Source of the DNA: an uncultured Candidatus Saccharibacteria bacterium
GTDB taxonomy: Bacteria > Patescibacteriota > Kazan-3B-28
NCBI GenBank assembly: GCA_964434605.1
Contig: CAYSVM010000001.1
Location: forward strand, 54,011 to 118,010
Direction: 5' to 3'
Length of the DNA: 64,000 nt
The notes beneath the pieces are model-generated. The model ran no database searches, had not been told where the DNA came from, and saw only the letters and a program-made list of their open reading frames with translations. Positions within the stretch are counted from its first letter, which is position 1. Each line of letters starts with the position of its first letter. This document shows, piece after piece, positions 40,545 through 56,863 of this stretch. A program made the position numbers and the translations under genes.

Positions 40545-41890
40545 AAAAATTATTCCGTTCAATTACCGTACTACTACTGGGGGGCTTACTGTTAAGCGCC
40601 GCTCGTTGCAGTTCATCGCTCTCTCCCAACCCCAACGATCCCACCCCTACTCCAATAACCAAAGAACCTATTACCCTAGAATACTGGCGCCTGTGGGATG
40701 ACAGCAGTATTTTCGATGAATACATTAAAAGCTACCAAAGCGAACATCCCAATATTTCCATAGAAGTAAAAAAAATAGAGATAAAGCCAGGCTATGACAT
40801 CTACAACTACCAAAGGGATGTAATAAAAGCAATTGCCGATGGCGCTGGCCCAGATATGTTCATGATCCACAACACTTGGTTGCCCTACCAAATAAACCAA
40901 ATCTCACCCCTGCCTGCCGGCACCATGACCCTAAGAAACTACAAAGACATCTTTCCCGAAGTCGTCCAACAAGACTTCGTAGACAATGATAAAATCTACG
41001 GTATCCCATATGGCATCGACAACCTTGTCCTCTACTACAACACAGATATTTTTAGTGAAAAGAAAATAAAGACTCCACCCAAAACTCTACAAGAGCTAGT
41101 GGAACTAGTCCCTAAATTAACCGAAAAAGATAGCAGGGGGAATATAGTCCGCTCAGCCATTCCTCTCGGTGGAACCGATGGCATCCCGAGAGCCGCAGAC
41201 ATCGTGGCTGCCCTTATGATGCAATACGGGGTAGATATGACATCTGGTGATCATAAAACTGCAACCTTCAATCTGCCAGTGCCAGGAAGCAATCCTCCGA
41301 TAATGGCCGGACAAGAAGCACTTACTTACTACACTCAGTTCGCCAATCCTGCTTCTTCCGTATATACCTACACCGATGCGAAGAATTCTGCTGGAACCCG
41401 TCTCTTCCCTTCGGATGTCCAAGCATTCATGGAAGGAAAAACTGCCATGATGCTTCACTATTCTTACCAGATAAAGAATATCCGTAAATTTGCACCAAAG
41501 CTAAAATTTGAAACAGCAGTTCTGCCCCAAAATCAACTTCAAAGTCCCGTAACCATTACGAACTATTGGGGAGAAACAGTTTCCAAAAACAGCCGGCACC
41601 CCAATGAGGCCTGGGACTTTATTAACTACATGATAAAACGCAACAACCAAAGTACTTTCACTCGTACTGCTGGATACGTATCTGCTCGTAAGGATCTGCG
41701 TGACACCGCCTCCAGTCGTCGTTATTATTCGGCCGTAGCCAACCAGATTCCCTACTCTCAAACTTGGTACCGAAAAAATACTCCCGATATCGAATCAATC
41801 TTTATTCGCATGATAAACAGCGTTGTTCGCGATAAGCTTTCATCTTCAGTGGCAGTAGACACAGCAGTCCGAGACATTAATCTTCTATGA
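40541..41890 (+). CDS. ABC-transporter extracellular solute-binding lipoprotein (family 1, sugar-type)
   Basis: Signal plus lipobox-like 'LLSAARCSSS', about 420 aa periplasmic-binding fold, sequence typical of sugar SBPs. Confidence 0.7.
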   Translation: MKKLFRSITVLLLGGLLLSAARCSSSLSPNPNDPTPTPITKEPITLEYWRLWDDSSIFDEYIKSYQSEHPNISIEVKKIEIKPGYDIYNYQRDVIKAIADGAGPDMFMIHNTWLPYQINQISPLPAGTMTLRNYKDIFPEVVQQDFVDNDKIYGIPYGIDNLVLYYNTDIFSEKKIKTPPKTLQELVELVPKLTEKDSRGNIVRSAIPLGGTDGIPRAADIVAALMMQYGVDMTSGDHKTATFNLPVPGSNPPIMAGQEALTYYTQFANPASSVYTYTDAKNSAGTRLFPSDVQAFMEGKTAMMLHYSYQIKNIRKFAPKLKFETAVLPQNQLQSPVTITNYWGETVSKNSRHPNEAWDFINYMIKRNNQSTFTRTAGYVSARKDLRDTASSRRYYSAVANQIPYSQTWYRKNTPDIESIFIRMINSVVRDKLSSSVAVDTAVRDINLL

Positions 41891-42120
41891 GTATTATTGG
41901 ACAAATATTCGACAGTATTAAAGAAATAATCTTTTTTATTCAAGGAACTATTTCAAAGGTTGCGTACTCTGTTGTTGTCCTGATGATTATAATCGGAGGC
42001 ATTCAATACATCATGGGACAGAAGGATGCTGCTAAAAAAACCTTAACTGCCGCTATTATCGGAATTATTATTATCCTTCTTGCGGCGGTAATAGTAGTTT
42101 CAACTAGAAATCTTTTCTAA
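41887..42120 (+). CDS. Small two-TM protein, VirB2/TrbC pilin-like paralog
   Basis: 77 aa with two hydrophobic helices that align with the C-terminal hairpin of the next ORF ('GGIQYIMGQKDAAKKTLTAAIIGIIII' versus 'AGIMYITAPGGKTDTAKNMIINAIVGIVII'). Confidence 0.5.
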   Translation: MSIIGQIFDSIKEIIFFIQGTISKVAYSVVVLMIIIGGIQYIMGQKDAAKKTLTAAIIGIIIILLAAVIVVSTRNLF

Positions 42121-42197
42121 ACCTCATTTTCCTTAAATTTCTGATACAATAAATAAGCAATATATTCGCATACTAATATTTTAAAAGGAGTTATCTT

Positions 42198-42533: not shown

Positions 42534-42558
42534 ACACCCAATATCTACACATATAAAA

Positions 42559-42586
42559 GGCCGCCCTTCTCGGGCGGTCTTTCTTT
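42559..42586 (+). terminator. Rho-independent terminator after the pilin gene
   Basis: ggccgccc-ttctc-gggcggtc hairpin followed by tttcttt. Confidence 0.55.
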
Positions 42587-42675
42587 GGCGGAGGCGACAG
42601 GATTCGAACCTGTGAGGGGCCTAAGCCCCAACCGGTTTTCGAGACCAGCGCCATCAACCGCTCGGCCACGCCTCC
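42586..42675 (-). tRNA. tRNA-Ser (CGA)
   Basis: Reverse complement is GGAGGCGTGGCCGAGCGGTTGATGGCGCTGGTCTCGAAAACCGG...AGGTTCGAATCCTGTCGCCTCCGCCA. Long variable arm, anticodon loop cU-CGA-aa, CCA encoded. Confidence 0.85.
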
Positions 42676-42689
42676 GTATTCATTGTAAT

Positions 42690-43151
42690 CTACCTTTTCC
42701 GAAGATCTCGGAAAAATCCTTTCATCAACTCCGCTACCGTACCGTCATTCTTCATTCTCTGGCAATGCAATCTAGGAAAGAGCTTATTCAACTGCATCCT
42801 AGACATTTTGCTTTCTACTGAACCAAATGATGGATCGGCTAGCAAATAATAGACGTTTTTTACTCTTGCATTACCCAATGCACCTAGACACATCAAACAT
42901 GGCTCGAGTGTCACATACATACTCGCCCCTTCTATCCGCCAATCTCCAATCTTCTTTTGGGCTTGTCTTAAGGCAACCAATTCGGCATGCATCAATCCAT
43001 CCTTTTTTGTGTGGGTTTGGTTGAATCCTCGACCAATAACCTTACCTTTGGTGTCCACCATTACCGCACCAACAGGAACTTCTTTTTTCGCTAAAGCCTT
43101 CCGTGCTTCACGGATGGCTAGCTGAAAGTATTGCAGATGAGTATCCACCAT
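42690..43151 (-). CDS. tadA: tRNA-specific adenosine deaminase
   Basis: CDA-fold zinc motifs 'HAELVAL' and 'PCLMCLGAL'. 153 aa. Confidence 0.9.
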   Translation of the reverse strand: MVDTHLQYFQLAIREARKALAKKEVPVGAVMVDTKGKVIGRGFNQTHTKKDGLMHAELVALRQAQKKIGDWRIEGASMYVTLEPCLMCLGALGNARVKNVYYLLADPSFGSVESKMSRMQLNKLFPRLHCQRMKNDGTVAELMKGFFRDLRKR

Positions 43152-43163
43152 ATATATACCAGC

Positions 43164-43253
43164 TGGCGGAGAGGGCGGGATTCGAACCCGCGATACCCTT
43201 GCGGGTATAACACGTTAGCAGTGTGCCGCTTTCGACCACTCAGCCACCTCTCC
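43164..43253 (-). tRNA. tRNA-Ser (GCT)
   Basis: Reverse complement is GGAGAGGTGGCTGAGTGGTCGAAAGCGGCACACTGCTAACGTGTT...GCGGGTTCGAATCCCGCCCTCTCCGCCA. Long variable arm, anticodon loop cU-GCT-aa. One A:C mismatch in the anticodon stem as I folded it. CCA encoded. Confidence 0.75.
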
Positions 43254-43330
43254 TGGCGCGCCCGAAGGGAGTCGAACCCCCGACCTTCTGGTCCGTAGCC
43301 AGACGCTCTAATCCACTGAGCTACGGGCGC
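43254..43330 (-). tRNA. tRNA-Arg (ACG)
   Basis: Reverse complement is GCGCCCGTAGCTCAGTGGATTAGAGCGTCTGGCTACGGACCAGAAGGTCGGGGGTTCGACTCCCTTCGGGCGCGCCA. Anticodon loop cU-ACG-ga, CCA encoded. It is directly abutting tRNA-Ser(GCT). Confidence 0.85.
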
Positions 43331-43341
43331 ATCTTTTCTGG

Positions 43342-43815
43342 CTACAGTTTGAAGAATCGGCCAATCCTATCCACAGGATCTTCCCCCCGACTGGCATCTT
43401 CTGGCAAGAACTTTCCCAAAATTTCCCTTATCTTTTCCACATCCACGTCGCCTATTTGTAAAGTCAACAACAATCCGAACTTCCTATTTGGCAATATATT
43501 CACAACTCTCGCCTCTTGTCCCAACACAATCCAAAACAACTTCAGCTTACTATATGGGTATACCCTCCCACCAACCTCCACGCCCGTTTCCAGAATGCGA
43601 TGCCAAAAAGTTCTTGGTTGGATTCTCCGTAAAAGATATATCACCAATCCCACCATTACTACCACCACTAGTGTCACCCATTGCCCAACCCATGCTGTCC
43701 ATATTGCAGCTACTAGCAAGAATGCCAAAGTCCAGCCACTCCAGCCAGCCGTACTCCCCCCAGAAAACTCGGGGGCTTCCCACTCGTATAAGATTTTTTG
43801 ATCCTCTTGGTTCAT
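43342..43815 (-). CDS. Small membrane protein (hypothetical) nested between tRNA genes
   Basis: 157 aa with two TM helices 'WTLAFLLVAAIWTAWVGQWVTLVVVVMVGLVIYLL' and a soluble C-terminal domain. Other ORFs in this interval on the plus strand overlap tRNAs and are rejected. Confidence 0.5.
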   Translation of the reverse strand: MNQEDQKILYEWEAPEFSGGSTAGWSGWTLAFLLVAAIWTAWVGQWVTLVVVVMVGLVIYLLRRIQPRTFWHRILETGVEVGGRVYPYSKLKLFWIVLGQEARVVNILPNRKFGLLLTLQIGDVDVEKIREILGKFLPEDASRGEDPVDRIGRFFKL

Positions 43816-43835
43816 GTTGTCTATATTATACCTTC

Positions 43836-43925
43836 TGGCGGAGGCGACAGGATTCGAACCTGTGAAGAGCTTGCACCCTAACTAGTTTTCAAGACTAGCG
43901 CCATAAACCACTCGGCCACACCTCC
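43836..43925 (-). tRNA. tRNA-Ser (TGA)
   Basis: Reverse complement is GGAGGTGTGGCCGAGTGGTTTATGGCGCTAGTCTTGAAAACTAG...AGGTTCGAATCCTGTCGCCTCCGCCA. Long variable arm, anticodon loop cU-TGA-aa, CCA encoded. Confidence 0.85.
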
Positions 43926-43950
43926 TTTTCCAAAGAACACCTATTCTATC

Positions 43951-45996
43951 TTAAAACCCTATGTGTACAAAGTTCTTATAGGTAACCTTGTCTGTCTTTT
44001 CTCCTGATAAAACAGAAATCCCCGTTCCGCTAAAGATATCGTGCATTCCGTCTAATACGGCATATAGGCCCAATGGAGCAGAAGTTAGCGCTACGTCCAG
44101 ACCAATATCTTGCGCTCGACCGAGCCAGGAATCACTGGTATATACGAATATGGTAGCGGCCTTACTAAAAACCCCGTTATCTATAGGTAGATCCATAAAA
44201 TGCCAATCCTTTTCGTCTATTACACCATCTTTCCCCGTATTATCAAAACCCACTCCACCTTCAGCCACTGCCACCGCTCCATTCGGAAAAACATCTAAGT
44301 CAGCAACCCCGTTATCTAAATCATCTTCAGGACTGTAGACAATTATCTGTCTTACCATGAGATCTGAATTCCAATCATTTGGTGCTACTGCTAGTTCTGC
44401 TGGCATTCGCTCCAAGTCCAAAACCAATTGACGAATATTCTGCCGTGCTTCATATGCCTTCCATAAAGAACATTTGTTCTTCGTCGATCCTTGCCACCCC
44501 ACCATGTTTGCTACTTGCATCATTCGAAAAGTCATCTGCAATCCATCATGCAGAGTCTGCATCAATTCTTCGTCCTTCCATTCAAGCACCCTGCCACGAG
44601 TCTTTTCTCGAACTGCCTTCAACTTCTCCAGCGCATCTTCCGCATATACCACTGTTTGTGCATGAATCCCCGAGTCCAAACCTTGGGCGGACATAATCTT
44701 TAGATTGTTTATCATAATGTCCAGAGCACTCCCCACCTTCCCAAACCATGTTTCGGGATCATCGACAAGCGCTTCCATCTCATTTCTATACACCTCATTT
44801 TTATCTGCCTTTTTTGCAATACCAAACAAAGCCACACCGCCTTCGTAAGCTGTTTTGCTATCAACCTGCAACTGTTCGTAAATCGGTCTTATTATATCTT
44901 GACTCGCCACTTCCTGCCAACTTACTTTAACTGGAGCATTATTCCTCATATCCCCGTCATTATCCCTAAAACATGCCTTAGCCAGTCCATTGCTTATCCG
45001 CCCAATTTGGCTAATCCCCAATCCTTGTCCGGTTTCATATGCACTCTGCGCATCCAAGAGTTCTTCTGTTTGGTCCGCAAGCGCAATTCCCGCAATCTTT
45101 ACCGCCGCCTTTCGCCTTGTAGCAGAAGGACCATTACTAGTGCTAATTTTTATTCCAATTACTCCATCTCTTTTTTCCCATTTTTCTCCCAAATATTTTA
45201 GGGTTGTCATGATTCGCCAATCCAGATTCATTGTCATTCTCCCATCCACCTCTCTCCATTCAATATCTTTTTCTAATCCGTTTTCAAAGACCAATACTCC
45301 ACTATTTTTTAGCCTCATCACTTCTCCGGCCAAAACTTGGTGTTTGGGATCTTCATAGTCCATTTCTATTGGGAAAGAACCACCACCTTCATTGAAAGCT
45401 TTGTGTGCTACTCCACCGAATTGGAAAAATAAGGCTATTACGATAACAATTATTAAAGCAACTAGCACTATTATCCAAAAATATGGATTCGACATTAAAG
45501 CCTTCAGGGCTATCCCTGTCGTCCTCGCTGTCGCTGCTGCTTTTTCAGCTTGCTGCGCTCTCTTTTGAGCAAGACGAATTTTTTGTTGTACCTGTCTTAT
45601 TCTATTCGCAGCATCTTGGACATGTTCAGGCCCAGATTGTTCGCCTTTCTCTTTTCCATTTTTCTGCTGTTTTTTATTCTTCGGCTCTTCTTCCTCTTCT
45701 TCCGGTTCTTCCTCTGGTTCTTCCTCTGGTTCTTCTTCCGGTTCTTCATCTAGCTCTCTTTCGACATCATCCAGTTTATTTTGCACTTTGCGTTTCAGGT
45801 TTTCTGCTAAATCATCACTCCCCTCATCCCTGTACCTAGAGGCCTCCTCCCACTGCTTCCCAACTTCATCCAACACTTCTAGTAATCTATCCACAACTTT
45901 CTGAGACAAGTTCTTAGCCAAAAGCAAATCTTTGACTCGTTGTTGCAGGTGGGCAATTTTCTGTCTTAACGATTTTTCTTTTTCTTCTTCAGCCAT
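43951..45996 (-). CDS. Large bitopic membrane protein: N-terminal cytoplasmic coiled coil with acidic EPEEE repeats, one TM, large extracytoplasmic domain of about 480 aa (hypothetical)
   Basis: 681 aa. '(EPEEE)n' runs, TM 'YFWIIVLVALIIVIVIALFF', and no catalytic motifs recognised in the C-terminal domain. Confidence 0.55.
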   Translation of the reverse strand: MAEEEKEKSLRQKIAHLQQRVKDLLLAKNLSQKVVDRLLEVLDEVGKQWEEASRYRDEGSDDLAENLKRKVQNKLDDVERELDEEPEEEPEEEPEEEPEEEEEEPKNKKQQKNGKEKGEQSGPEHVQDAANRIRQVQQKIRLAQKRAQQAEKAAATARTTGIALKALMSNPYFWIIVLVALIIVIVIALFFQFGGVAHKAFNEGGGSFPIEMDYEDPKHQVLAGEVMRLKNSGVLVFENGLEKDIEWREVDGRMTMNLDWRIMTTLKYLGEKWEKRDGVIGIKISTSNGPSATRRKAAVKIAGIALADQTEELLDAQSAYETGQGLGISQIGRISNGLAKACFRDNDGDMRNNAPVKVSWQEVASQDIIRPIYEQLQVDSKTAYEGGVALFGIAKKADKNEVYRNEMEALVDDPETWFGKVGSALDIMINNLKIMSAQGLDSGIHAQTVVYAEDALEKLKAVREKTRGRVLEWKDEELMQTLHDGLQMTFRMMQVANMVGWQGSTKNKCSLWKAYEARQNIRQLVLDLERMPAELAVAPNDWNSDLMVRQIIVYSPEDDLDNGVADLDVFPNGAVAVAEGGVGFDNTGKDGVIDEKDWHFMDLPIDNGVFSKAATIFVYTSDSWLGRAQDIGLDVALTSAPLGLYAVLDGMHDIFSGTGISVLSGEKTDKVTYKNFVHIGF

Positions 45997-47454
45997 CTAG
46001 ATTTTCATTACAAAAATTCCTGTTGTTGTAGTCAACATTAGCATTTTCCCGATGGAACTGTATTCCATGGAGTTTATTTGCAAATTAGTTTCCTGCCCCA
46101 CAAATGGGATCATAGTCCTATCTCCGTTGTTTATATTTATTCTAATAAAAGTCTGATTTGGAGCTACTATTAAAATTTCGTCTGCACTCAACCAAGTGAT
46201 AGGTGTGCTTGTTGATGCCAACTCTCCTTTTTCAACTATCTCCGACTGAGCCGTTGCAAATTCATATGTTTTCAGTTGCATCTTCCCCTCTATCTCTACG
46301 ACATATGCGAGTTTCGCACCATCCGAAGAAATAGCATACTGACTTCCGGCAACTCTGTCCTGAACTATCTCGGAAATAGATTTCGCCACCAAGTCTACAA
46401 GCAACAATTTTCCCGCAGATTCTATAAGCAAATACCTATCATCTGCACCCCAGATCATTTTAGGGTTATCCAGTTGAGGCAAGTCAACAATTACTCGCTC
46501 CCACTCTTCTCCACTAGGAAGTGCCCGTACAAGAGAGTATTCCCCATCTGCAGTATCGTAGATATATAGTATCTCCGCCCCATCGTTGCTGTATGCCACC
46601 TGTCTAATACTTTCATTAAGCGCAACTGGCTGCCACCCACTAGATGTTTTTAGACTGTCATCAAAGAACCACGTACTAGTCCCTATATATTTAGAAGCTC
46701 CTTGGGTTGGCCGTTCTCCCAAAACAATATATCTCCCTCTAACCTGCCTATTATCTTGCATATTCTTGAGTTTCAGTTGGCCAGTAAGCTTCACTAACGC
46801 CGCTTGTGTCACCGGAGACCAAGTAATGTCACCCACCCCACTAAAACTTCCCCTAAAGAGAGAAGCAACCTTATTTTCCGTGGTACTCGAAGACTTAAAA
46901 CTACCATCTATTGGATCGTAATATGCGACTTCTAGCCCATTGCGATTCAACCGTGGATAAACAACATTGCCTTCTACCAATTTATCTATACTAGGTATAG
47001 GTAGAAGCCCTAGATTTAATAGGATCTTGTCGCCCCGAACAATCTCAATCGTCTTCTCAAGTTCCAGAAAACCATCTTTTGTTAAACCAAGAATATGCTT
47101 ACCTGCTTTAAGCTTTACAACATATCCTGTGTCGATCGTTCCATATGGTTTGTTATCAATTTTTAGCCCAACCGCTGCTTCATTTAGTTCAAAAGTCACT
47201 TCTCCCACATTGAATTTCAACCCCAAGAGCAAAAAGTAACCCGTCCCAAAGACCAGAATTGCAGCAAACAGACTAATCCCTATCGCCTGCCAATTAATTC
47301 GAGTCTGTTTTTTGGGAACACGGTTAGAAAAATTCAAATTTATACCCACTCCTTTAGTAGGAGCAGGTTTTCCTCTGCTCTGTCGTAATAATTCCGCTAA
47401 TTGTTGTTCTGGCGTTTTTTCGCCCCCAGACTGGCTAATTTGCTCATCTGCCAT
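45997..47454 (-). CDS. Membrane-anchored PEGA-like and beta-propeller (TolB-like) protein
   Basis: 485 aa with N-terminal TM 'IGISLFAAILVFGTGYFLLLGL', a PEGA-like beta-sandwich 'YVVKLKAGKHILGLTKDGF', and repeated 'SxDGxxLxYxxD' propeller blades. Confidence 0.55.
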   Translation of the reverse strand: MADEQISQSGGEKTPEQQLAELLRQSRGKPAPTKGVGINLNFSNRVPKKQTRINWQAIGISLFAAILVFGTGYFLLLGLKFNVGEVTFELNEAAVGLKIDNKPYGTIDTGYVVKLKAGKHILGLTKDGFLELEKTIEIVRGDKILLNLGLLPIPSIDKLVEGNVVYPRLNRNGLEVAYYDPIDGSFKSSSTTENKVASLFRGSFSGVGDITWSPVTQAALVKLTGQLKLKNMQDNRQVRGRYIVLGERPTQGASKYIGTSTWFFDDSLKTSSGWQPVALNESIRQVAYSNDGAEILYIYDTADGEYSLVRALPSGEEWERVIVDLPQLDNPKMIWGADDRYLLIESAGKLLLVDLVAKSISEIVQDRVAGSQYAISSDGAKLAYVVEIEGKMQLKTYEFATAQSEIVEKGELASTSTPITWLSADEILIVAPNQTFIRININNGDRTMIPFVGQETNLQINSMEYSSIGKMLMLTTTTGIFVMKI

Positions 47455-47550: not shown

Positions 47551-47579
47551 TTGACAAAATACGATTTTTTTGATAAAAT
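47551..47579 (+). promoter_or_regulatory. Near-consensus sigma-70 promoter (extended -10) upstream of the VirB6-like gene
   Basis: TTGACA (47551-47556), a 17-nt spacer, then TG-n-TAAAAT (47571-47579). About 28 nt upstream of ATG 47608. The ORF track's TTG start at 47551 coincides with the -35 box and is unlikely to be a real start. Confidence 0.5.
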
Positions 47580-47607: not shown

Positions 47608-50163
47608 ATGAAGCGCTTCATTAGTTTTATTACCTCTCTTAGAAATATCAAACGCCCACAACTTATCTTGGGTGGTCTTTTAGTAACCACAACTGTCATT
47701 ACAACCCTAATTGCTTCTCCCGCTTACGCATTCACCTTAAGTCCCGCAGCTGCTGCCGCAGGCATCCTAACAAATCTGTTCCTTTCTGTAGGCGAACTAA
47801 TCCAATGGGCATCTGTCCTGTTTCTTAGCCTGATTATCAATGTTATCTTACCCGGCCAGAACAGCCTTATCTTTGGAGAACAGGTATTTACTGCATGGAG
47901 AACCATGCTTGATCTTACTAACATCGTTTTCTTCCTAGCACTCTTTATCTTCGCTATTTTCATCATCACTCGTAATGCCGGCTACAACTTCAAAAAAGCT
48001 GTTATCGCACTTATTACCGCCATTGCCCTAGCCAATCTAAGTTTAGTTATCGTCCAATTACTAATTGAAATGGGTGATGCCTTACGAAATTTCAGTAGCC
48101 TTATCCCCGCCTTTGGAATGCAAGGAGGAGACACTACTCAACTGAGGGAGTGGCTACATGGACTGGTTTTGCCAAAAGACTTCAATCTTGAGGCTGCTTC
48201 TAAAGATGTTTGGGATATAGTATGGGTAGCTTTTCAAGTAATGGCCGCCCAAGCTATCATCGCCTACGTTCTATTCCGCCTAATGTTCGTACTAGTCGAA
48301 CGTGCTATCCGTTTGGCAATTTTAGCTATCTTTGGACCAATCCAAGCTGCAATTAGTGTTCTACCTCAAAAAGAACTCCAAGGACTAGGTAGCAACTGGT
48401 TCGGAGATGTTTTGCGCTGGGTTCTAGTTCTCCCCCTCTCCTTTATTCTTATCGGCATTGCCCGTCTAATCATGCCAACCAAAAGCGCTGCAACTCTTGA
48501 ATCATTTCTAAATCAAGCCCAAAAAGATGGAGGCACTCTAACTGGAACTGAAGAGCTGTTTCTTCTCATAATCGGCCTCGGAGTCCTTGTCGCTGCATCT
48601 TCTGTTCCAACAATGTTAAAGGTCCCAGTTTCTGCCCTCACCAACATGTTACCTAACTACGTAGGAAAAGCTGGCAAGGATTTAGGAAAAGCTGTTGGCA
48701 AAGGTATTTGGAATAATGTTAAGGCTAGGGGTAAACATATGGCCTTCAAGGTCGGAAGAAATATACCTGGCTATCGTTGGGTAGCCGGTAAAATTGCCGA
48801 TCGCAAACGAGAAGTCGACGCTCAAGCAAAACAACGCGCTTCCTTTGCCGACAAAGCCGCGCGCGACCGCGCTGTTAGTCGATACAACAAGAATAATCAA
48901 AGACTTGAAGGTAATATTAAAATCCAGCTCGAACAAGAACCCGGAGCCAAGCAACATGGTGGCTTTGATGCTTGGTTAGCCGCAGACCCAACAGCAGCCA
49001 AAGCTGCTAAAAACAGAATTAAAGATAGAGCCGAAAAGAGTGATCTCGGACTCGCCGTTGATGCAGACAACAAAGCATACATGGCCGCTATTATGGATGA
49101 GGTTGAGTCTGAATCCAAGAAAGACCGTAATGCAGGTGAACAAAAAGATGCTATCAATGAGCTAATTGAAAAAATTAAAAGCAACCCGAACGATAACGAC
49201 GCAAAAATGAAGCTATCAGCCATGCTTATACTCTTGAAACGCGAAACTAACAGAACGGGAGCTGGACGCAAGGACGCTATAGAAGCATTTGACGATGTAA
49301 TTGAGAAAAATAGCCTAGAAGACAAGGAAAAACGTTCCAAACTCGGTATCCATAACAAAGTAAATCTTAATCCGGTAGGAAAAAGCAAAAAAACCTCTGG
49401 TGTAGATGACGCAGAAAAAGATATAAACCATATGGCCAAAGTCCAAGTGGAACTTAAAGGCCTAGAAGAACTCAAAGAAGCTTTTAAAAACGGATTGTCT
49501 TTACCAAATAAACTGATGGACTTTCAGATGACAAACTTCAAAGATTCCAAAAAACAAGAACGAGTCGACGCTATTCTTGACAGCCCTCACGCAACCCAAG
49601 AAGAAAAAGCTGGAGTGGTAGCTAAGACGCTGGAGATAGGAAGGGAGCTTGCCCAGGCCATCGTGGGTGCAAATCTTCGTGGAGACGATTTGGGTAGAAT
49701 GTCTGATCAAAACGCCCTCGGCACTTCTTTGGAGGATTTCCTCAAAACCACTGTTGATGGTCGCATACAATCTAAGCGATCTGAACTTAATAACATCAGG
49801 GAAACTGTCGCTACAAAAAGCGCCGCTCAACCAGGAATGAAAGTAATTAAAGACACTGTTGCCAGCCTTGATCCTTCTGATATCAGCGAGCTTAGTAATA
49901 ACCTTAAAGAACTTGGAGACATTATCTCCTTAGTTCTTGCCCAAGGACACAGTGATACCGCGGTAAATGAATTGCCTCAGATTAACCAAGATCAAATTGG
50001 AGAACTTATAAATAAAATAGAAAACGGACTTAAACTCCCAGGCGGAACTCTTAGTAACAATGGGGAGAACGCACTAAATAGGTTAAACCAGACTTCAATT
50101 GGTATATATAAAATTCTCCGCGACCAGAGCGGTACATACACTGATCTTCGTGATGCAATATAA
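47608..50163 (+). CDS. VirB6/TrbL-like polytopic T4SS channel protein with a long hydrophilic C-terminal extension
   Basis: N-terminal 330 aa or so with at least 6 TM helices in a TrbL/VirB6-like arrangement, then about 520 aa of charged, Lys/Asp/Glu-rich soluble domain. Confidence 0.65.
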   Translation: MKRFISFITSLRNIKRPQLILGGLLVTTTVITTLIASPAYAFTLSPAAAAAGILTNLFLSVGELIQWASVLFLSLIINVILPGQNSLIFGEQVFTAWRTMLDLTNIVFFLALFIFAIFIITRNAGYNFKKAVIALITAIALANLSLVIVQLLIEMGDALRNFSSLIPAFGMQGGDTTQLREWLHGLVLPKDFNLEAASKDVWDIVWVAFQVMAAQAIIAYVLFRLMFVLVERAIRLAILAIFGPIQAAISVLPQKELQGLGSNWFGDVLRWVLVLPLSFILIGIARLIMPTKSAATLESFLNQAQKDGGTLTGTEELFLLIIGLGVLVAASSVPTMLKVPVSALTNMLPNYVGKAGKDLGKAVGKGIWNNVKARGKHMAFKVGRNIPGYRWVAGKIADRKREVDAQAKQRASFADKAARDRAVSRYNKNNQRLEGNIKIQLEQEPGAKQHGGFDAWLAADPTAAKAAKNRIKDRAEKSDLGLAVDADNKAYMAAIMDEVESESKKDRNAGEQKDAINELIEKIKSNPNDNDAKMKLSAMLILLKRETNRTGAGRKDAIEAFDDVIEKNSLEDKEKRSKLGIHNKVNLNPVGKSKKTSGVDDAEKDINHMAKVQVELKGLEELKEAFKNGLSLPNKLMDFQMTNFKDSKKQERVDAILDSPHATQEEKAGVVAKTLEIGRELAQAIVGANLRGDDLGRMSDQNALGTSLEDFLKTTVDGRIQSKRSELNNIRETVATKSAAQPGMKVIKDTVASLDPSDISELSNNLKELGDIISLVLAQGHSDTAVNELPQINQDQIGELINKIENGLKLPGGTLSNNGENALNRLNQTSIGIYKILRDQSGTYTDLRDAI

Positions 50164-50716: not shown

Positions 50717-51394
50717 ATGGCACGCAAACAACCAAAATTCAAAAGTACCCAACAGTTCCTTCCTGTCCAAGAAATTAGGGATGGGATAGTGGTCTTAAAA
50801 GGCGGTGGATACCGTACAGTGCTAATGGTCAACGCCATTAACTTCAGCCTGAAATCAGCAGACGAACAACAGGCCTTACTAAACAGCTACCAGAACTTTC
50901 TCAATGGTCTTTCTTTCCCTATCCAAATCGTGATGCAATCTCGCACACTCGACCTAACCAACTACCTAACCAGCCTCGAACAAGCAGCTAGTAAGCAGAC
51001 TAACGACTTGCTTCGTACCCAAACAAACGAATACACCACTTTTGTTCGCGATCTTGTTGGGGTTGCCAACATCATGAGCAAAACCTTTTACGTAATCGTC
51101 CCCCACAACGAGATGCCCCTACTTACCGGTGGATTCCACCTATTTGGAAAAAAGAAAAGCTCTCCTAGCCGTCAGTTTGAGGAAATAAAAACTGCTATGA
51201 GCGAAAAAACCAACCTCATCTCAAGCGGACTAGCTAGTCTAGGATTAAACAATGTTCAACTAAATACCCAAGAGCTAATCGAGCTTTTCTATACCAGCTA
51301 CAACAGTGATTCTGCTCGTCGGCAAAAGCTCTTTTCCGTAAGCAATGTCGATGCTTCTATTATCCGTAACGTAAAAGATGCGGAGGCCCAATAA
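50717..51394 (+). CDS. Stand-alone VirB4 N-terminal-domain-like protein
   Basis: 225 aa. 'FLPVQEIRDGIVVLKGGGYRTVLMVNAINFSLKSADEQQALLNSYQNFLNGLSFPIQIVMQSR' resembles the N-terminal region of VirB4/TraE-type ATPases. Its stop overlaps the next ATG (TAATG). Confidence 0.5.
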   Translation: MARKQPKFKSTQQFLPVQEIRDGIVVLKGGGYRTVLMVNAINFSLKSADEQQALLNSYQNFLNGLSFPIQIVMQSRTLDLTNYLTSLEQAASKQTNDLLRTQTNEYTTFVRDLVGVANIMSKTFYVIVPHNEMPLLTGGFHLFGKKKSSPSRQFEEIKTAMSEKTNLISSGLASLGLNNVQLNTQELIELFYTSYNSDSARRQKLFSVSNVDASIIRNVKDAEAQ

Positions 51395-53184
51395 TGTTCG
51401 GAAGAAAAAAGAAAATTCAGACTGCCGAAGAACAAGCTGCTAAGAAAGCGGCGGAGAGTTTTGAAAGCGGTCTTGTTTCTGTCCGCGACCTTATCGCCCC
51501 TACTGCCATGGAGATCAAAAACGACCGTCTACTTCTAAACGGCAAGTTTGTCCGCAGTTTCTTCGTGTTAACCTACCCTCAATATATCGAGACCAATTGG
51601 CTCGCTCCCCTAATAAACTACGACGTCAATATAGATATTTCAATGCACATCTATCCCGTAGACAACGCAAACATTATGCGTGTCTTGCGTCGGAAAGTAA
51701 GCGAAATGGAATCGTCTCTTCGCATCAACGAGGAAAAAGGAGCCATCCGCGATCCTGAACTGGAGATTGCCTATAACGATGCCGAGGAGTTACGCGATCG
51801 CCTCCAAAGAGGTATCGAAAAGTTCTTCCACTACGCCCTATACTTCACCATCTATGCCTCCAGCGAAGAAAAGTTAGACAGCGTAACCAGCCATATTGAA
51901 ACGACCCTTGGTGGCCAACTGGTTTACACCAAACAGGCACTGCTGCAAATGGAACAAGGATTTAATTCTAGCCTTCCTCTTGGTCTAGACGAACTAAATG
52001 TTGTCCGAAACATGACCACATCTTCAGTAGGGACCACTTTCCCCTTCACCTCAGTCGATCTCACTACTGGAAAAGGTGTCCTGTATGGTATCAACCGACA
52101 CAACAATTCCCTCATCCTCTTCGATCGATTCGAGTTAGAAAACGCCAACATGGTAGTCTTTGCCAAATCTGGTGGTGGTAAATCCTATGCCATTAAACTA
52201 GAGGTTCTCCGTAGCATGATGTTCGATACTGATGTTATCGTTATCGATCCCGAGAACGAATACAAAGCTTTAGCAGATGCTGTTGGAGGCAGTTACATTT
52301 CAGTGAGTTTGAATAGTGAAAAACGAATTAATCCATTTGACTTACCCAACCTTGGCACCAATGCTGATGGGGAAAAAGTTCTCCGCGCTTCCGTTATTAC
52401 CCTCATGGGCTTAATGAACCTAATGCTTGGCAAACTCACTCCAGAAGAAGAGGCTCTAATGGAAAAAGCGCTAATGGAAACCTACGCCTTGAAGGACATT
52501 ACTGGAGATATCAAGACCCACCAGAATCCTGCCCCAACAATGCAAGACCTATACAACGTTTTGGGAAATATGACTGGTGCAGAAAGCCTGGCCTTGCGTC
52601 TAACCAAATACACCACAGGAACCTTTGCCGGTGTCTTTAACCAACCGACAAACTTTGAATTAGATCGCGGTCTAATGGTCTTTTCTATCCGTGACTTGGA
52701 AGACACTCTCCGACCAATCGCTATGTATGTTGTCCTAAACTACATTTGGAACAAGATTCGTTTCAATATGAAGAAGCGAATGCTGGTAATAGACGAAGCT
52801 TGGATTCTTATGCAGTACGAAGACTCTGCCAAATTCCTTTACTCCATCGCCAAACGTGCCCGTAAATATTACCTCGGACTCACCACAATCACCCAGGATA
52901 TCGAAGACTTCTTGGGCTCCAAGTACGGCAAAGCAGTTGTGGCAAACTCTTCGCTACAGTTACTTCTGCGCCAATCCCCCGCCTCTATCGACATAGTTGC
53001 AGAAACCTTCAACCTTACCCAAGGAGAAAAATTCCTTCTACTTGAATCAAATGTTGGTGAAGGTCTATTCTTCGCTGGTACCAACCATGCTGCCATCAAA
53101 GTGGTTGCCAGCTACATTGAAGACCGTATTGTTACTTCGGATCCCAGTCAGCTAGCAGAACTTCGTAACCTCACAGGAGGTTAA
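51394..53184 (+). CDS. virB4: Type IV secretion ATPase VirB4 (CagE/TrbE/TraE family)
   Basis: N-terminal 'LLLNGKFVRSFFVLTYPQYIETNWLAPLIN...DISMHIYPV', Walker A 'VVFAKSGGGKSY', and Walker B 'MLVIDEAW'. 596 aa. Confidence 0.85.
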   Translation: MFGRKKKIQTAEEQAAKKAAESFESGLVSVRDLIAPTAMEIKNDRLLLNGKFVRSFFVLTYPQYIETNWLAPLINYDVNIDISMHIYPVDNANIMRVLRRKVSEMESSLRINEEKGAIRDPELEIAYNDAEELRDRLQRGIEKFFHYALYFTIYASSEEKLDSVTSHIETTLGGQLVYTKQALLQMEQGFNSSLPLGLDELNVVRNMTTSSVGTTFPFTSVDLTTGKGVLYGINRHNNSLILFDRFELENANMVVFAKSGGGKSYAIKLEVLRSMMFDTDVIVIDPENEYKALADAVGGSYISVSLNSEKRINPFDLPNLGTNADGEKVLRASVITLMGLMNLMLGKLTPEEEALMEKALMETYALKDITGDIKTHQNPAPTMQDLYNVLGNMTGAESLALRLTKYTTGTFAGVFNQPTNFELDRGLMVFSIRDLEDTLRPIAMYVVLNYIWNKIRFNMKKRMLVIDEAWILMQYEDSAKFLYSIAKRARKYYLGLTTITQDIEDFLGSKYGKAVVANSSLQLLLRQSPASIDIVAETFNLTQGEKFLLLESNVGEGLFFAGTNHAAIKVVASYIEDRIVTSDPSQLAELRNLTGG

Positions 53185-53186
53185 TT

Positions 53187-54458
53187 ATGCGTCCTGTAAG
53201 CGTAATTGGTGTTGTCTTTTGGGGAACAGTTGGAATCCTAACACTCATCGCAGTACTGACTGTTACTTTTACAAGAGAAACTACGGGAATCGAGGAGCGT
53301 TGGGGAAGCCGAACAGCAGAAGAGCGCCAAACAGACCTACTCGACCCCATCTCCATTTTAGCCAAGAATAAAAACTACCAATCAAACGTTAGTGGCAACA
53401 AAAGCATTCGTCCAACCGGTTCGTCTGATCACGACAACGACGGCCTTACCAATGATATAGAAATCTCCCTAGGAATTGACCCTGCCAATCCCGACACAGA
53501 CGGAGATGGAGTATTAGATGGTATCGAAAAGGAACTTGGAACAAATCCCAACGATCCAAAAGAAGGTGGACTTGCTCCGGTACCCCAAACCACAACGCCA
53601 ACCTCTACCCCAAACCAACTTGTTATCACCCGCCTCTCCAAGACAGCCATCGTTGGTGGTCGGCCAGTGCACTTCGTCACTCTTCCCGTAGGAAGTACTA
53701 TTCAATTCCGTATTCGAGCAGAAGCAACAAATTTGGGTGGAAGCCACACCTTAGTACTTGAAGACAAAATTCCCAACTCTTTCCATGACTTTACCGGAAC
53801 CATTCAGGTGAATAATTCACCAACCTCAAAAATAACCAAAAATTCGCTTAGTCGATATGTAATTAGAGTTAGCCCTAATACCCAAACAGTTGTTGTAGAA
53901 ATCAACTTCTCAGTTACTGCCACCGCCGTTGGCAATTGGGAAAATATCGCCAACATCTACAAGCCAAACGAGTTAGACGGCCTGTCCGACAAGGTGTATC
54001 TCCGCATTACTAATCCAAAAAGTTACACCACCCAGCCTCCAGCCAGCTGCACCATCTGTAATCTCTTCTTACTCGGTCGTGCCAACAAAGATGAAGCATG
54101 GGGCACTAGAATATTTGCCGAAACAAATACCCAACTAGACTTCTATATCTCCATTGAAACATCAAATCTTGAAAGCGAAACCAAAACTTTTTCCATAAAA
54201 GACGTACTCCCCTCCGGACTCAAATACGTCCCTGGCAGTGGCAAAGTTTTTTACGATAACCGCTCCACTCCCAAACAGCTCCCCGATACCTGGATAACAG
54301 ACTACAATCTCACCACTACGCATAAAACCAACCGATTTGAGCTCTACTTTTCTGCTACAGTAGAAACAGACGCTCCCTTCGCTCTAACCAACAATACTGA
54401 GGTAGTTAGTTGGGATGGCAAATCTTATCAATCTAGCGTAAAAGTAAACTCCAAATAA
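53187..54458 (+). CDS. Secreted/surface protein with thrombospondin-type-3-like Ca-binding repeats and a DUF11-like repeat domain
   Basis: N-terminal TM or signal sequence, then 'DHDNDGLTNDIEISLGIDPANPDTDGDGVLDG' (DxDxDG repeats), then beta-rich repeats. SD 'ggagg' sits 7 nt upstream. Translationally coupled to virB4. Confidence 0.55.
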   Translation: MRPVSVIGVVFWGTVGILTLIAVLTVTFTRETTGIEERWGSRTAEERQTDLLDPISILAKNKNYQSNVSGNKSIRPTGSSDHDNDGLTNDIEISLGIDPANPDTDGDGVLDGIEKELGTNPNDPKEGGLAPVPQTTTPTSTPNQLVITRLSKTAIVGGRPVHFVTLPVGSTIQFRIRAEATNLGGSHTLVLEDKIPNSFHDFTGTIQVNNSPTSKITKNSLSRYVIRVSPNTQTVVVEINFSVTATAVGNWENIANIYKPNELDGLSDKVYLRITNPKSYTTQPPASCTICNLFLLGRANKDEAWGTRIFAETNTQLDFYISIETSNLESETKTFSIKDVLPSGLKYVPGSGKVFYDNRSTPKQLPDTWITDYNLTTTHKTNRFELYFSATVETDAPFALTNNTEVVSWDGKSYQSSVKVNSK

Positions 54459-54460
54459 CC

Positions 54461-56113
54461 ATGACCAACCAAGCCCCTCATCCCCAGAACGAAGACGATG
54501 CCCCAATGGAGCAGTTTGTAACCACCCTCCAACGAAGGAAGGAAGAAGAATATACCCAGAAAAAAGCATCTGAACTAAACCTCACTTACCAAAACTTGGT
54601 TGGCTTCCAACCCAACCCATCTGCTGTCAGTATTGTCCCCAAAGACCTTGCCCATTCCGCCAATATCTTTGCATATGAAAAAGACGGAACCGTTATTTCC
54701 CTTGCGCTTTCAAATCCCGAAGATCCCACGACCATAGACGCCCTAAAGAAGCTTTCTGCACTAGATGAATTTGAATTCAAACCAGTATTAGTCTCTTCTT
54801 CTTCAATGAAATACCTACTAGGAATCTATGACACCTTTTCTCCTACTCAAACTAAAGTCGATGATATAAATATCGATACCAAGCTACAAGAAAAGTTTTC
54901 CAAACTAACTAATCTAAAAGAGCTTCAAACAGCTCTCACTACCGCCTCAACCAGCGAACTAACTGAAACTATCTTTGCTGGTGCTATTGGTTTAAATGCT
55001 TCCGACATTCATATCGAGCCCACCAAAGAAGGTGTTCGTCTACGCTTCCGACTCGATGGCGTCCTCCATGATATTACCGAGCTTCCCTTGGACCGGTTAG
55101 ATACTCTAACCAACCGTATCAAAATGCTATCCCAACTGAAACTCAACCTCACTGAAACCGCCCAAGATGGACGTTTCTCTATCCACACCCCCAAAGGAAC
55201 CTATGATATCCGTGTCTCAATCCTTCCCACCCAATACGGAGAATCTGCTGTTCTACGTCTACTTCCCCAAGAAGGAAGTTTTATTAACTTGGATAAGATT
55301 GGTTTTTCTCCCGAAGTAAAACAATGGGTAGACTCAGCCATTCACGAACCCAACGGCCTTATCCTAAACACCGGTCCCACTGGTTCCGGTAAGACCACCA
55401 CCCTTTATGCAATCCTGAATACCATCAATAAGCCAGATTCAAAAATCATTACCGTAGAAGATCCTGTAGAATACCGTCTTGAAGGAATTACCCAAACCCA
55501 AGTCAATGTAGAAGAAGACTATACTTTTGCCAACGCTCTTCGTTCTATCGTCCGCCAAGACCCAGACATTATTTTAGTTGGAGAAATTCGTGACAAAGAA
55601 ACTGCCAACATTGCAGTAGACGCCGCACTGACTGGACACCTTGTCCTCTCCACCCTACACACCAATGACGCTGCCGGTGCTGTTCCCCGGCTAGTAGAAC
55701 TTGGTGCCCAACCAAAGCTATTCTCCGACGCTCTTCGTCTTATTATCGCCCAGAGGTTGGTTCGTCGTCTTTGCCCTAAATGCAAAGAAGCATACTCACC
55801 CAAAGGCGCGGAGTTAGAAAAAATAAAATCCATCTCCCCTTCCACTCTCCCCAAAACTATCTACCGTCCCAAAGGATGCGATGCCTGCAATGGAACGGGG
55901 TACCATGGCCGTATCGGCATCTTCGAAGTGTTACGAATCACTCCAGAGATAAAAGAAGCTATCAATGAAGGCAAGGGTGCAGCTGAACTCGCCCAACTAG
56001 CTATTTCCCAAGGAATGATTACACTCGCCCAAGATGGACTAGCTCGAGTAATTGAAGACACAACCTCTCTAGATGAATTGCTTCGGGTTGTCGGAGGAAA
56101 CAAAACCAACTAA
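54461..56113 (+). CDS. GspE/PilB-type secretion ATPase (type II/IV secretion, type IV pilus assembly family)
   Basis: GSPII_E_N-like N-domain, Walker A 'GPTGSGKTTTLYA', Asp box 'VEDPVEY', Walker B 'ILVGEIRD', His box 'LSTLHTNDA', and C-terminal tetracysteine 'CPKC...CDACNGTG'. Confidence 0.9.
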   Translation: MTNQAPHPQNEDDAPMEQFVTTLQRRKEEEYTQKKASELNLTYQNLVGFQPNPSAVSIVPKDLAHSANIFAYEKDGTVISLALSNPEDPTTIDALKKLSALDEFEFKPVLVSSSSMKYLLGIYDTFSPTQTKVDDINIDTKLQEKFSKLTNLKELQTALTTASTSELTETIFAGAIGLNASDIHIEPTKEGVRLRFRLDGVLHDITELPLDRLDTLTNRIKMLSQLKLNLTETAQDGRFSIHTPKGTYDIRVSILPTQYGESAVLRLLPQEGSFINLDKIGFSPEVKQWVDSAIHEPNGLILNTGPTGSGKTTTLYAILNTINKPDSKIITVEDPVEYRLEGITQTQVNVEEDYTFANALRSIVRQDPDIILVGEIRDKETANIAVDAALTGHLVLSTLHTNDAAGAVPRLVELGAQPKLFSDALRLIIAQRLVRRLCPKCKEAYSPKGAELEKIKSISPSTLPKTIYRPKGCDACNGTGYHGRIGIFEVLRITPEIKEAINEGKGAAELAQLAISQGMITLAQDGLARVIEDTTSLDELLRVVGGNKTN

Positions 56114-56167
56114 GTGCTATACTGGAACCAGAGGTGAAAGGGGCGGAATCTCAACCGCTTTTCTTTT

Positions 56168-56863
56168 ATGCCAAAGCTTCGTCACTTATTTCTGGGTATG
56201 ATTTTTCTCGGCCTTATCGTTGCCGAGGCTGTTCCCGTACTAACCAAACTCTCCTCTCCCGCCCAATCTGAGCGCCAACTCACCGCAGAAGAACAAAACA
56301 CCATTCTCTCTATCTTACAAAAACCAGAGGACAGTTCCTCTTCTACTTTTACTGGAAAATTTTTAGATATTAGTTGGCCACTTGATCCAAACCAAGTAAA
56401 AAAAGATGTCATCATGTCTTCGACCATGATGGGAAGTCCCCAACTAAATCAAGTAGCCTCTCCTGTTCAAACTCCCGACGACAGTCTTACTGGCATCCTT
56501 CCTCCAATCAACAGCGACCTGTATTACGCCTACCAAGATGGCGGTAGGTTTTGGTATGGCCAAGGTAGCAATATTTTAGTTATCTTCCCTAACGAAAGTA
56601 TCCGCAGCTTCAATAAAGCAACCGGAGCGGAAACCATGTGGATGCAAGATCGTCTTGCCTATCCCCCAATCAGTGACCCAACAGCATACACCAACTACCA
56701 ACAAAACTACCGCGCATTAATTGTTGCCGAAACTACTCAGTGGGTGTTAATGGAATTCCCTTCCGGGGGAATAGTCAAAGTCTACAAACCGCAATACACC
56801 GCCTCGGGAGGTAGTGGCAGTGTTTCTTCTCTTCCCAGCTTCTTGTTTAACTTGATCGACTAG
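56168..56863 (+). CDS. Hypothetical secreted or membrane-anchored protein (size and topology compatible with a VirB8-like component, speculative)
   Basis: 231 aa with an N-terminal hydrophobic anchor 'LFLGMIFLGLIVAEAV' and a soluble domain with no motifs. Confidence 0.45.
   Translation: MPKLRHLFLGMIFLGLIVAEAVPVLTKLSSPAQSERQLTAEEQNTILSILQKPEDSSSSTFTGKFLDISWPLDPNQVKKDVIMSSTMMGSPQLNQVASPVQTPDDSLTGILPPINSDLYYAYQDGGRFWYGQGSNILVIFPNESIRSFNKATGAETMWMQDRLAYPPISDPTAYTNYQQNYRALIVAETTQWVLMEFPSGGIVKVYKPQYTASGGSGSVSSLPSFLFNLID

Follow-up and report, generated by a model that had tools for sequence, protein, structure and literature searches.

Positions 40.5 to 56.9 kb of the 64,000-nucleotide stretch analysed here (the window) hold the genes of a type IV secretion system (T4SS), which, judging from its genes, we read with a probability of about 80% as the Kazan-lineage member of the chromosomal T4SS typical of Patescibacteria (the candidate phyla radiation, CPR), working by the translocon and pilus mechanism proposed below. 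The host is a reduced-genome Patescibacterium of candidate division Kazan (class Kazan-3B-28); we know of no Kazan bacterium in cultivation. The locus is a Kazan version of a known relaxase-less, pilin-bearing chromosomal T4SS, and its sole undescribed detail is a PilB-type ATPase encoded by the last gene of the operon, the link of which to the machine is unproven. The original prediction, made from the letters alone, had named two VirB2-like pilins, a VirB6-like protein, PrgI/VirB3, VirB4, a TSP3 surface protein and PilB/GspE, and all of these open reading frames (ORFs) are present (Table 1). It had missed the division of VirB4 over two genes, a pair of membrane-protein genes upstream of the core (p681 and p485), and the membership in the cluster of a gene for a solute-binding protein (SBP).

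The family of the system is clearest from its VirB4 ATPase. This protein reaches 392.9 bits (cut-off 325) with the NCBIfam model 'VirB4-like conjugal transfer ATPase, CD1110 family', covering positions 180-730 of 752, and it also matches the TraG P-loop of Pfam with 91 bits, its Walker A and B motifs being KSGGGKS and LVIDEAW. In BLASTP, residues 220-772 of PrgJ from pCF10 are aligned at 27% identity (E 4e-46). The 225-residue ORF directly before it matches positions 2-123 of the same CD1110 profile (E 9e-7), TrsD (E 4e-4), and positions 100-237 of VirB4_plasma, the VirB4 model of mycoplasma integrative and conjugative elements (ICEs; E 5e-12), and the TraC-like family PF26593 is present in its orthologues. 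This small ORF covers the N-terminal part of the VirB4 profile and the 596-residue protein the remainder: VirB4 is split in two, a TrsD-like N-domain ORF and an ATPase ORF. VirB4 is 98-63% identical to more than 100 Patescibacterial proteins; its best named relatives come from 'candidate division Kazan' metagenome-assembled genomes (74-82% identity), and the closest of all is 98% identical (RA.bin10). The best plasmid-borne VirB4 proteins, from Embleya, Streptomyces, Pontibacillus and Priestia, reach 38-39% and belong to the CD1110 family of Bacillota and Actinomycetota. By profile score and percent identity, VirB4 thus falls in the Patescibacterial clade related to MPF_FATA (MPF, mating-pair formation).

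The other core proteins are recognized with varying ease. PrgI/VirB3 scores 39.3 bits with Pfam PrgI, where the cut-off is 27. The VirB6-like protein, encoded directly upstream of PrgI, has about 7-8 hydrophobic segments in residues 17-339, followed by some 510 hydrophilic residues. Its orthologues carry precomputed TrbL_3 matches, and 4/19 of them give sub-threshold TrbL/VirB6 matches to the same part of the Pfam model (best E 4e-5). Comparison by hhalign with a 779-residue protein of Pontibacillus gave a probability of 85% (E 6e-6), and the gene of that protein lies two genes upstream of a CD1110 VirB4, a position equal to that of the VirB6-like gene in the window. The comparison with PrgH of pCF10 alone was not significant (E 0.077), and searches of PDB sequences with VirB6-like profiles found nothing. 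The start at ATG 47608, as originally chosen, is upheld; a longer ORF from TTG 47551 was rejected, as that codon coincides with the −35 box of the predicted promoter.

Both pilins have the VirB2 topology. Pilin 2 is matched by T4SS_pilin (35.3 bits) and TrbC (32.1 bits), both above the Pfam cut-offs, and by the NCBIfam Mbov_0395 pilin-like family (E 9e-5), and its own profile matches pilin arrays in 10 non-Kazan T4SS loci. For pilin 1 the corresponding scores (24.2 and 23.8 bits) are just under the cut-offs; orthologues occur in three other loci (L003, L007 and L011), and that in L003 has a precomputed PF18895 match. The pilin genes lie 9 kb upstream of virB4.

Conservation was followed in 80 VirB4 loci from species-representative genomes, which were searched with 16 window proteins, the neighbourhoods extending 10 kb either side of the matched gene. 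Wherever VirB4 identity is at least 70%, the order is always p681(−) p485(−) VirB6-like PrgI TrsD-like VirB4 TSP3 PilB p231 valS(−) tsaD(−), as far as the contig reaches. This order is identical in 17 Kazan-clade genome loci, among them CP011216.1, a closed genome, and METB01000001.1, a contig of 700 kb, and in 5 metagenome loci; synteny in related genomes had been put forward in the original prediction as a check on it. The same position and the same housekeeping flanks are kept across the clade down to 70% VirB4 identity, indicating vertical inheritance. The labels Saccharimonadia, Doudna-, Andersen-, Berkel- and Gracilibacteria belong to loci in which VirB4 identity does not exceed 66%. As judged by BLAST, PrgI-TrsD-like-VirB4 is all that most of these loci share; nearly all of those from Saccharimonadia, Doudna-, Andersen- and Berkelbacteria retain this core, and several labelled Gracilibacteria share VirB4 only. 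Among the fetched loci, PrgI stands upstream of VirB4 in 69 and the TrsD-like ORF is found in 75. As a separate observation, one Kazan relative has small GIY-YIG (homing-endonuclease-like) genes inserted in the syntenic region (L001 1025-1276 and 15375-15668; L002 18966-19226), which were not detected in the window.

No domain of a type IV coupling protein (T4CP), relaxase or integrase was found by Pfam searches of the window ORFs of at least 100 residues over the 64 kb, where 13 ORFs have no match at all and leave room for a divergent relaxase; a repeat-bounded island was likewise not found in the 64 kb. The surroundings are housekeeping genes such as rpoD, dnaG and dnaE, and the GC content of the locus is the same as that of its flanks. 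With housekeeping genes all round it and neither relaxase nor coupling protein found in the 64 kb, the apparatus is in our reading not a conjugation machine. Both the lack of these genes and the housekeeping setting had been predicted correctly, as had the overall picture of a chromosomal, non-conjugative T4SS-like apparatus in a reduced-genome bacterium.

That picture, however, has already been published for Patescibacteria. A chromosomal T4SS was reported in Saccharibacteria by McLean 2020, and transposon sequencing by Wang 2023 (PMC10633639) showed the T4SS, with an essential pilin array, to be essential for epibiotic growth of Southlakia epibionticum; its composition was described there as unusual and Gram-positive-like, with no recognisable coupling or relaxase proteins. 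The phylum-wide survey of Quiñonero-Coronel 2025 (PMC12102498) describes a monophyletic VirB4 clade related to MPF_FATA, chromosomal and with almost no relaxases, in which TrsD, PrgI/VirB3, VirB6 and VirB2 arrays are found near virB4 and TrsD and VirB4 are arranged as in the window. A 2025 review presents the Patescibacterial systems as a new T4SS type. The novelty implied in the original prediction therefore does not stand, since the same architecture is in these three studies (McLean 2020; PMC10633639; PMC12102498) and the genome table of the survey lists Kazan-3B-28 assemblies.

In the mechanism that we propose, the extended VirB6-like protein, PrgI/VirB3 and the two-piece VirB4 (TrsD-like N-domain plus ATPase) would form a translocon that builds, by polymerising the pair of VirB2-like pilins, a short conduit or pilus across the monoderm wall. 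The MepA/LAS-like ectodomain of p681 and the PEGA/propeller protein p485 would open or scaffold the peptidoglycan, and the TSP3/immunoglobulin (Ig)-like protein would act as a surface adhesin or stalk. The function would most likely be contact-dependent exchange with a host cell, that is, export of proteins or other cargo, as has been inferred for Saccharibacteria.

The structural model of p681 is confident and shows a MepA-like sub-domain together with a helical bundle; H599-x6-D606 and H678 of the window protein resemble the zinc ligands of LAS enzymes. The protein is otherwise isolated: a search of 1.84 billion proteins gave just 48 representative relatives of its ectodomain, no Pfam match was found among the 49 family members and no sequence match in the PDB, and Foldseek gave no significant match against the PDB. 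For this candidate component of cell-wall remodelling, a putative wall-binding or wall-cutting role analogous to that of VirB1 is plausible. Two further observations concern cell-wall and surface proteins. In a low-GC relative (L087, Ga0268387_1164587), positions 1997-9894, before the PilB-valS block, encode a Peptidase_C39_2 protein anchored in the membrane, two other anchored proteins of small size and a 1786-residue secreted protein; the last ends in '...HVGF', reminiscent of '...HIGF' in p681, and gave no match to p681 in BLASTP. In the window itself, a 765-residue SpoIID-domain protein (lytic transglycosylase family) with Ig-like domains is encoded at 36887-39184 (−), 2.7 kb upstream of the pilins and 1.4 kb upstream of the SBP gene, and could also serve the wall remodelling of the apparatus.

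The neighbour of p681, p485, has weak Pfam matches to PEGA and beta-propeller families. A profile search recovered its relatives in 22 non-Kazan loci, 2-6 kb downstream of VirB4 and on the same strand (for example L024 14193-15536 and L027 14958-16172), and in a few non-Kazan loci relatives of p681 adjoin them (L027, E 1e-12). p485 also matches the PEGA protein SEML1_0005 of S. epibionticum, which is essential and flanks the T4SS there, just outside its published boundaries. Because relatives sit inside the T4SS clusters of other lineages, p485 is, by profile, a recurrent component of Patescibacterial T4SS clusters; on the same grounds the TSP3 protein is a cluster component, p681 probably one and the SBP perhaps one. 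A PEGA/propeller protein as an accessory is not mentioned in the available parts of the T4SS papers.

The TSP3 protein has a single transmembrane segment (residues 3-29), two calcium-binding TSP3 repeats (TSP3_bac 35 bits) and then Ig-like domains, with one DUF11 repeat and an RrgB isopeptide domain scoring 28.1 bits against a cut-off of 30. Its orthologues evolve fast and differ in length (280-489 residues), and a profile search finds TSP3 proteins also in Andersenbacteria-type T4SS loci; the protein may be an adhesin or a stalk that spans the wall. The last gene of the block, p231, has 15 orthologues, all in the Kazan clade and none outside, always after PilB, with an invariant E20 inside the anchor helix. 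Its size and topology would suit a VirB8-like protein (PrgL/TraM, NTF2-like), but it gave no sequence match to one. As a canonical type IV pilin p231 was rejected on two counts: the weak profile match to PilE1 (8pfb_G, E 4e-4) is due to the hydrophobic helix, aligned in a register that does not fit the pilin E5, and the putative G|xxxxE site comes after the hydrophobic segment instead of before it. It is kept as a weak lead.

Several points weigh against the proposed reading. The original family calls held above the cut-offs for pilin 2, PrgI and VirB4 and were narrowly missed for pilin 1, but the VirB6-like protein of the window has no Pfam or NCBIfam match of its own; its AlphaFold2 model, built from an 8-sequence alignment, has a mean confidence score (pLDDT) of 52, too poor to judge the fold, and the VirB6 assignment, on sub-threshold and positional evidence, is the weakest of the family calls. 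Neither a VirB8-like protein nor a classical VirB1 was identified in the locus. Only 25/46 relatives of p681 retain H678, its third putative zinc ligand, which makes the catalytic status of the MepA-like domain doubtful. The pilus, its cargo and the direction of transport we infer wholly from homology and from Saccharibacterial genetics. Finally, the gene of a relaxase or coupling protein may lie in another part of this genome: according to the survey (PMC12102498), VirD4 homologues are frequent elsewhere in Patescibacterial genomes, most of them far from virB4.

The PilB-type ATPase deserves closer attention. From its predicted features, the run from the VirB6-like gene to PilB is one operon: there is a single strong predicted promoter (TTGACA-17-TAAAAT, the best match in 41-57.5 kb, a consensus match lying 29 nt 5′ of ATG 47608), the gaps are tiny, and a terminator-like hairpin follows PilB. 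The 550-residue protein scores 408 bits with Pfam T2SSE, accompanied by MshEN, and 492 and 483 bits with NCBIfam GspE and PilB, both below the equivalog cut-offs; the VirB11 model TIGR02788 gives 58.8 bits where 250 is required. Its N-terminal MshEN/GspE-N domain, Walker A, Asp box, Walker B, His box and tetracysteine motif (CPKC...CDAC) are all intact. By these profiles and motifs, it is a full-length PilB/GspE and not a VirB11, and it differs from typical type IV pilus or type II secretion ATPase genes in being embedded in a T4SS operon. To our knowledge, the parent class (MPF_FATA-like, with a CD1110-type VirB4) has no VirB11, so there is nothing for PilB to replace. The original description, 'PilB instead of VirB11', is accordingly not supported for this CD1110/MPF_FATA-like VirB4 system; as far as the loci compared indicate, the linkage of PilB with the T4SS is confined to the Kazan clade and one other lineage, and is inseparable from general synteny.

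Could PilB nevertheless be a real subunit, a second or third motor in a monoderm pilin-bearing T4SS that takes the role played by VirB11, of the same ATPase superfamily, in VirB2-pilus biogenesis? The gene is the final one of the T4SS operon, 2 nt from the gene upstream and closed by the hairpin, it follows VirB4-TSP3 in 22/22 Kazan-clade loci reaching that far, and its product retains every ATPase motif. In a second lineage with a different arrangement (L078, JAOUGE010000001.1; L080, CAZAOT010000003.1), a PilB gene adjoins the T4SS cluster and converges on a VirB2-like pilin gene. PilC, PilM/N/O, PilD and type IV pilins are absent from the window and from within 10 kb in the Kazan-clade loci, with no PilC or PilM Pfam matches in the annotated neighbourhoods, and a canonical type IV pilin motif lay within 10 kb in 0/22 Kazan-clade loci as against 48/75 ordinary bacterial PilB loci, the latter recovered as a positive control by a metagenome scan with PilB, from which the 5 Kazan-clade metagenome loci also came. 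On the other hand, 59/61 non-Kazan Patescibacterial T4SS loci with the same core, several of them with pilin arrays, have no PilB within 10 kb, and the essential cluster of S. epibionticum, as published, has none either. Next to the operon, valS, tsaD, femAB and the gene of a Mur ligase are no less constant than PilB, and simple synteny may thus account for the adjacency; L087 keeps a 48%-identical PilB together with valS-tsaD-femAB-mur and has no T4SS gene in 10 kb upstream, its contig ending 5.7 kb beyond. Tiny gaps and overlaps also occur elsewhere in the window (SBP-pilin 1; efp-ychF), the protein is canonical in its N-terminal domain and zinc-finger cysteines and scores poorly with the VirB11 model, and the PilB gene of Moranbacteria (L089), the nearest relative outside Kazan among those looked up, likewise stands alone, surrounded by unrelated genes.

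On balance, PilB is more likely to drive the assembly of a type IV pilus or pseudopilus, and to be simply encoded at this place, than to be a T4SS subunit, and we consider the latter unlikely. Somewhat less likely again is the narrower proposal that PilB was recruited as an extra motor in Kazan, and possibly in a Berkelbacteria-like sister lineage, as an independent analogue of VirB11 acting with the TSP3 adhesin and p231. A PilB/GspE gene in the T4SS cluster goes unmentioned in the papers cited, with zero occurrences in the available text and two supplementary files of Quiñonero-Coronel 2025 (PMC12102498). A VirB2 pilus powered in this manner would be new, were PilB indeed part of the machine; present evidence does not favour this.

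The SBP gene bears on another possibility, that the apparatus works inwards and takes up DNA, nucleotides or other host macromolecules, like ComB of Helicobacter or Ced of Sulfolobales, with the pilin-linked SBP perhaps capturing the cargo. The SBP gene overlaps that of pilin 1 by 4 nt, no ABC permease or ATPase gene was found near it, and the order SBP-then-VirB2-like-pilin recurs in L078 (13574-16466), L080 (13501-16508) and L023 (48-2802), so that an orphan SBP gene translationally coupled to pilin genes is conserved as a pairing in three lineages. VirB4 also gives weak matches to the DNA-import ATPases CedB (E 3e-13) and CedD (E 6e-3), and Patescibacteria are reported to be unable to make nucleotides, amino acids and lipids (2025 review; PMC10633639). 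The Ced matches, however, are far weaker than those to conjugative VirB4 proteins, and loss of comEC in S. epibionticum abolished transformation while viability was unaffected, meaning that nutritional DNA uptake is not the essential role there (2025 review). We hold uptake to be improbable. The SBP is a possible accessory of the pilin module; its coupling to pilins is not mentioned in the available parts of the T4SS papers.

Less credible still is a degraded or dispersed conjugative element, the T4SS of which would still move DNA by means of a coupling protein and a relaxase encoded outside the window. Its VirB4 is of the conjugative CD1110 type, and the nearest Actinomycetota relative, in Embleya, has PrgI and VirB4 with a T4CP and a relaxase-like (replication-relaxation) gene beside VirB4; the locus includes tRNA genes, at which integration is common, and the VirD4 homologues found elsewhere in these genomes could be counted here too. 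Nevertheless, besides the missing integrase, relaxase, T4CP and repeat-bounded island, there is no compositional anomaly, and the chromosomal position and flanks are kept to 70% VirB4 identity. According to the survey (PMC12102498), relaxases occur in only 103 Patescibacterial genomes, and the t4cp homologue of S. epibionticum is non-essential whereas its T4SS genes are essential. An ICE is rejected, as integrase, relaxase and T4CP were not found in the window and the position is vertically inherited.

The chromosomal T4SS of the Kazan lineage is thus laid out as two plus-strand gene blocks with a divergent minus-strand pair between them (Table 1). The first block (SBP and pilin genes) is separated from the core block by four tRNA genes (three Ser and one Arg-ACG), tadA and a small membrane protein gene, all on the minus strand. 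From the VirB6-like gene through p231, the intergenic gaps are 10, 6, −1, 2, 2 and 54 nt, and a valS-like gene for a class I aminoacyl-tRNA synthetase is convergent with p231. Flanking genes recognized by Pfam are rpoD, dnaG, rpsF, ssb, efp, ychF, those of a Clp ATPase, nusA, rnhB, rplS and dnaE, and further leuS, a class Ib aminoacyl-tRNA synthetase (TrpRS/TyrRS family), the SpoIID protein, Hsp20, a sugar nucleotidyltransferase, the valS-like gene, tsaD, femAB and a Mur ligase.

A few side observations belong to this layout. The tadA gene, for tRNA adenosine-34 deaminase, sits in the tRNA cluster at 42586-43925 beside the gene of its own substrate, tRNA-Arg(ACG), and three tRNA-Ser genes. The small membrane protein of 157 residues has homologues in 22 non-Kazan VirB4 loci (E 1e-24 to 1e-33), always on the opposite strand and 6-11 kb downstream of VirB4. 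The GC skew of the plus strand is strongly negative (about −0.13 to −0.33) in 30/32 bins of 2 kb regardless of gene orientation, the exceptions being bins 1-2000 and 48001-50000, and this strand asymmetry is much stronger than in most bacteria.

Table 1. Features of the Kazan T4SS locus, in window coordinates.
Feature	Position	Strand	Evidence or context
SBP gene, orphan solute-binding protein (SBP_bac_1/8)	40541..41890	+	Pfam SBP_bac_8 107.7 bits
VirB2-like pilin 1, 77 aa, two hydrophobic helices, no signal peptide	41887..42120	+	T4SS_pilin, TrbC just below cut-off
VirB2-like pilin 2, 111 aa, signal peptide and two hydrophobic helices	42198..42533	+	T4SS_pilin, TrbC above cut-offs
tadA	42690-43151	−	in tRNA cluster
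tRNA-Arg(ACG)	43254-43330	−	
157-aa membrane protein, no Pfam match	43342-43815	−	
p681, single-pass membrane protein, acidic coiled N-terminal part and 480-aa ectodomain	43951..45996	−	
p485, N-terminally anchored, PEGA domain and beta-propeller-like	45997..47454	−	weak Pfam matches
Predicted sigma-70-type promoter, TTGACA-17-TAAAAT with TG extension	47551..47579	+	consensus match, 11/12 positions
Extended VirB6-like polytopic membrane protein, 851 aa	47608..50163	+	
PrgI/VirB3-like protein, 178 aa	50174..50710	+	Pfam PrgI
TrsD/TraC-like protein, detached VirB4 N-terminal domain, 225 aa	50717..51394	+	NCBIfam profiles
VirB4 ATPase, 596 aa, without N-terminal domain	51394..53184	+	CD1110 family
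TSP3/Ig-like N-terminally anchored surface protein	53187..54458	+	TSP3_bac, RrgB-type, DUF11
PilB/GspE-type secretion ATPase, 550 aa, final operon gene	54461..56113	+	T2SSE and MshEN
Terminator-like hairpin and T-run, 3′ of PilB	56139..56162	+	pattern scan: 8 pairs, 4 G-C
p231, N-terminally anchored, conserved beta-rich C-terminal domain	56168..56863	+	Kazan-clade only

Among characterised systems, the closest is that of S. epibionticum, the published gene table of which lists a PEGA protein, lysozyme, VirB4, a 293-residue ORF, PrgI, VirB6-like proteins, six pilins and Hsp20. Like its cluster SEML1_0006-0019, the Kazan locus is chromosomal, has no relaxase or coupling protein in the cluster, and combines an array of VirB2-like pilins with an extended VirB6-like protein and PrgI/VirB3; in both, a TrsD-like ORF directly precedes a short VirB4, a PEGA-domain protein stands at the edge and an Hsp20 gene lies near the pilins. 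The window VirB4 is 65-66% identical to those of loci labelled Saccharimonadia. In contrast to the six pilins of S. epibionticum, the Kazan locus has two, split from the core by tRNA genes and tadA, and downstream of VirB4 the lysozyme, amidase and SLT genes of S. epibionticum are replaced by those of the TSP3/Ig-like protein, the PilB-type ATPase and p231. In the Kazan locus p681 and p485 are upstream and divergent, an SBP gene is joined to those of the pilins, and neither dnaA nor dnaN is a neighbour. From the Kazan version it can be seen that the VirB6-like protein, PrgI, the TrsD-like protein, VirB4, the pilins and the PEGA protein are invariant, and that other parts are swapped between classes, namely peptidoglycan hydrolases against the MepA-like p681, and the surface adhesins; it also points to two recurring accessories, the pilin-coupled SBP gene and the PEGA/propeller protein.

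Compared with MPF_T (VirB/VirD4), the window lacks VirB11, VirB7/9/10 and VirB5, no Pfam or NCBIfam match to the VirB7/9/10 outer-membrane core or to VirB5 having been found in the locus. The resemblance to pCF10 (MPF_FATA; PrgH-PrgI-PrgJ-PrgK-PrgL-PcfC) is greater: both have the order VirB6-like, VirB3 (PrgI) and CD1110-family VirB4 in a monoderm setting without VirB7, VirB9 and VirB10. However, the VirB4 of pCF10 is in one piece and is accompanied by a relaxase, the VirD4-like PcfC, the lysozyme PrgK, the VirB8-like PrgL and LPXTG adhesins, but by no pilin, whereas in the window VirB4 is split, pilins are present, and neither a T4CP nor a relaxase was found.

The statement in the original prediction that the component mix does not match canonical MPF classes is therefore only partly true, for the core (pilin-like, VirB6-like, VirB3, TrsD-like and short VirB4) is also found in a Bacillota replicon. 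On the replicon NZ_CP062975.1 of Pontibacillus sp. ALD_SL1 (351801-361354), a Mbov_0395 pilin-like gene, the 779-residue VirB6-like core-motif protein and a VirB3-sized small ORF are accompanied by a TrsD-like ORF (31% identical, E 2e-38) and a short CD1110 VirB4 (38% identical), with no T4CP or relaxase adjacent. Its VirB4 is followed by a peptidoglycan metallopeptidase (DD-metalloendopeptidase), and the module lies among flagellar and chemotaxis genes. PilB, TSP3, p485 and SBP, all present in the window, are missing from this uncharacterised module, which is carried by a large secondary replicon of a free-living Firmicute. Because this replicon has the same core module, the mix of pilin and Gram-positive core is, as far as such comparison goes, not unique to CPR, and the Pontibacillus module is a possible non-CPR model for this type of T4SS.

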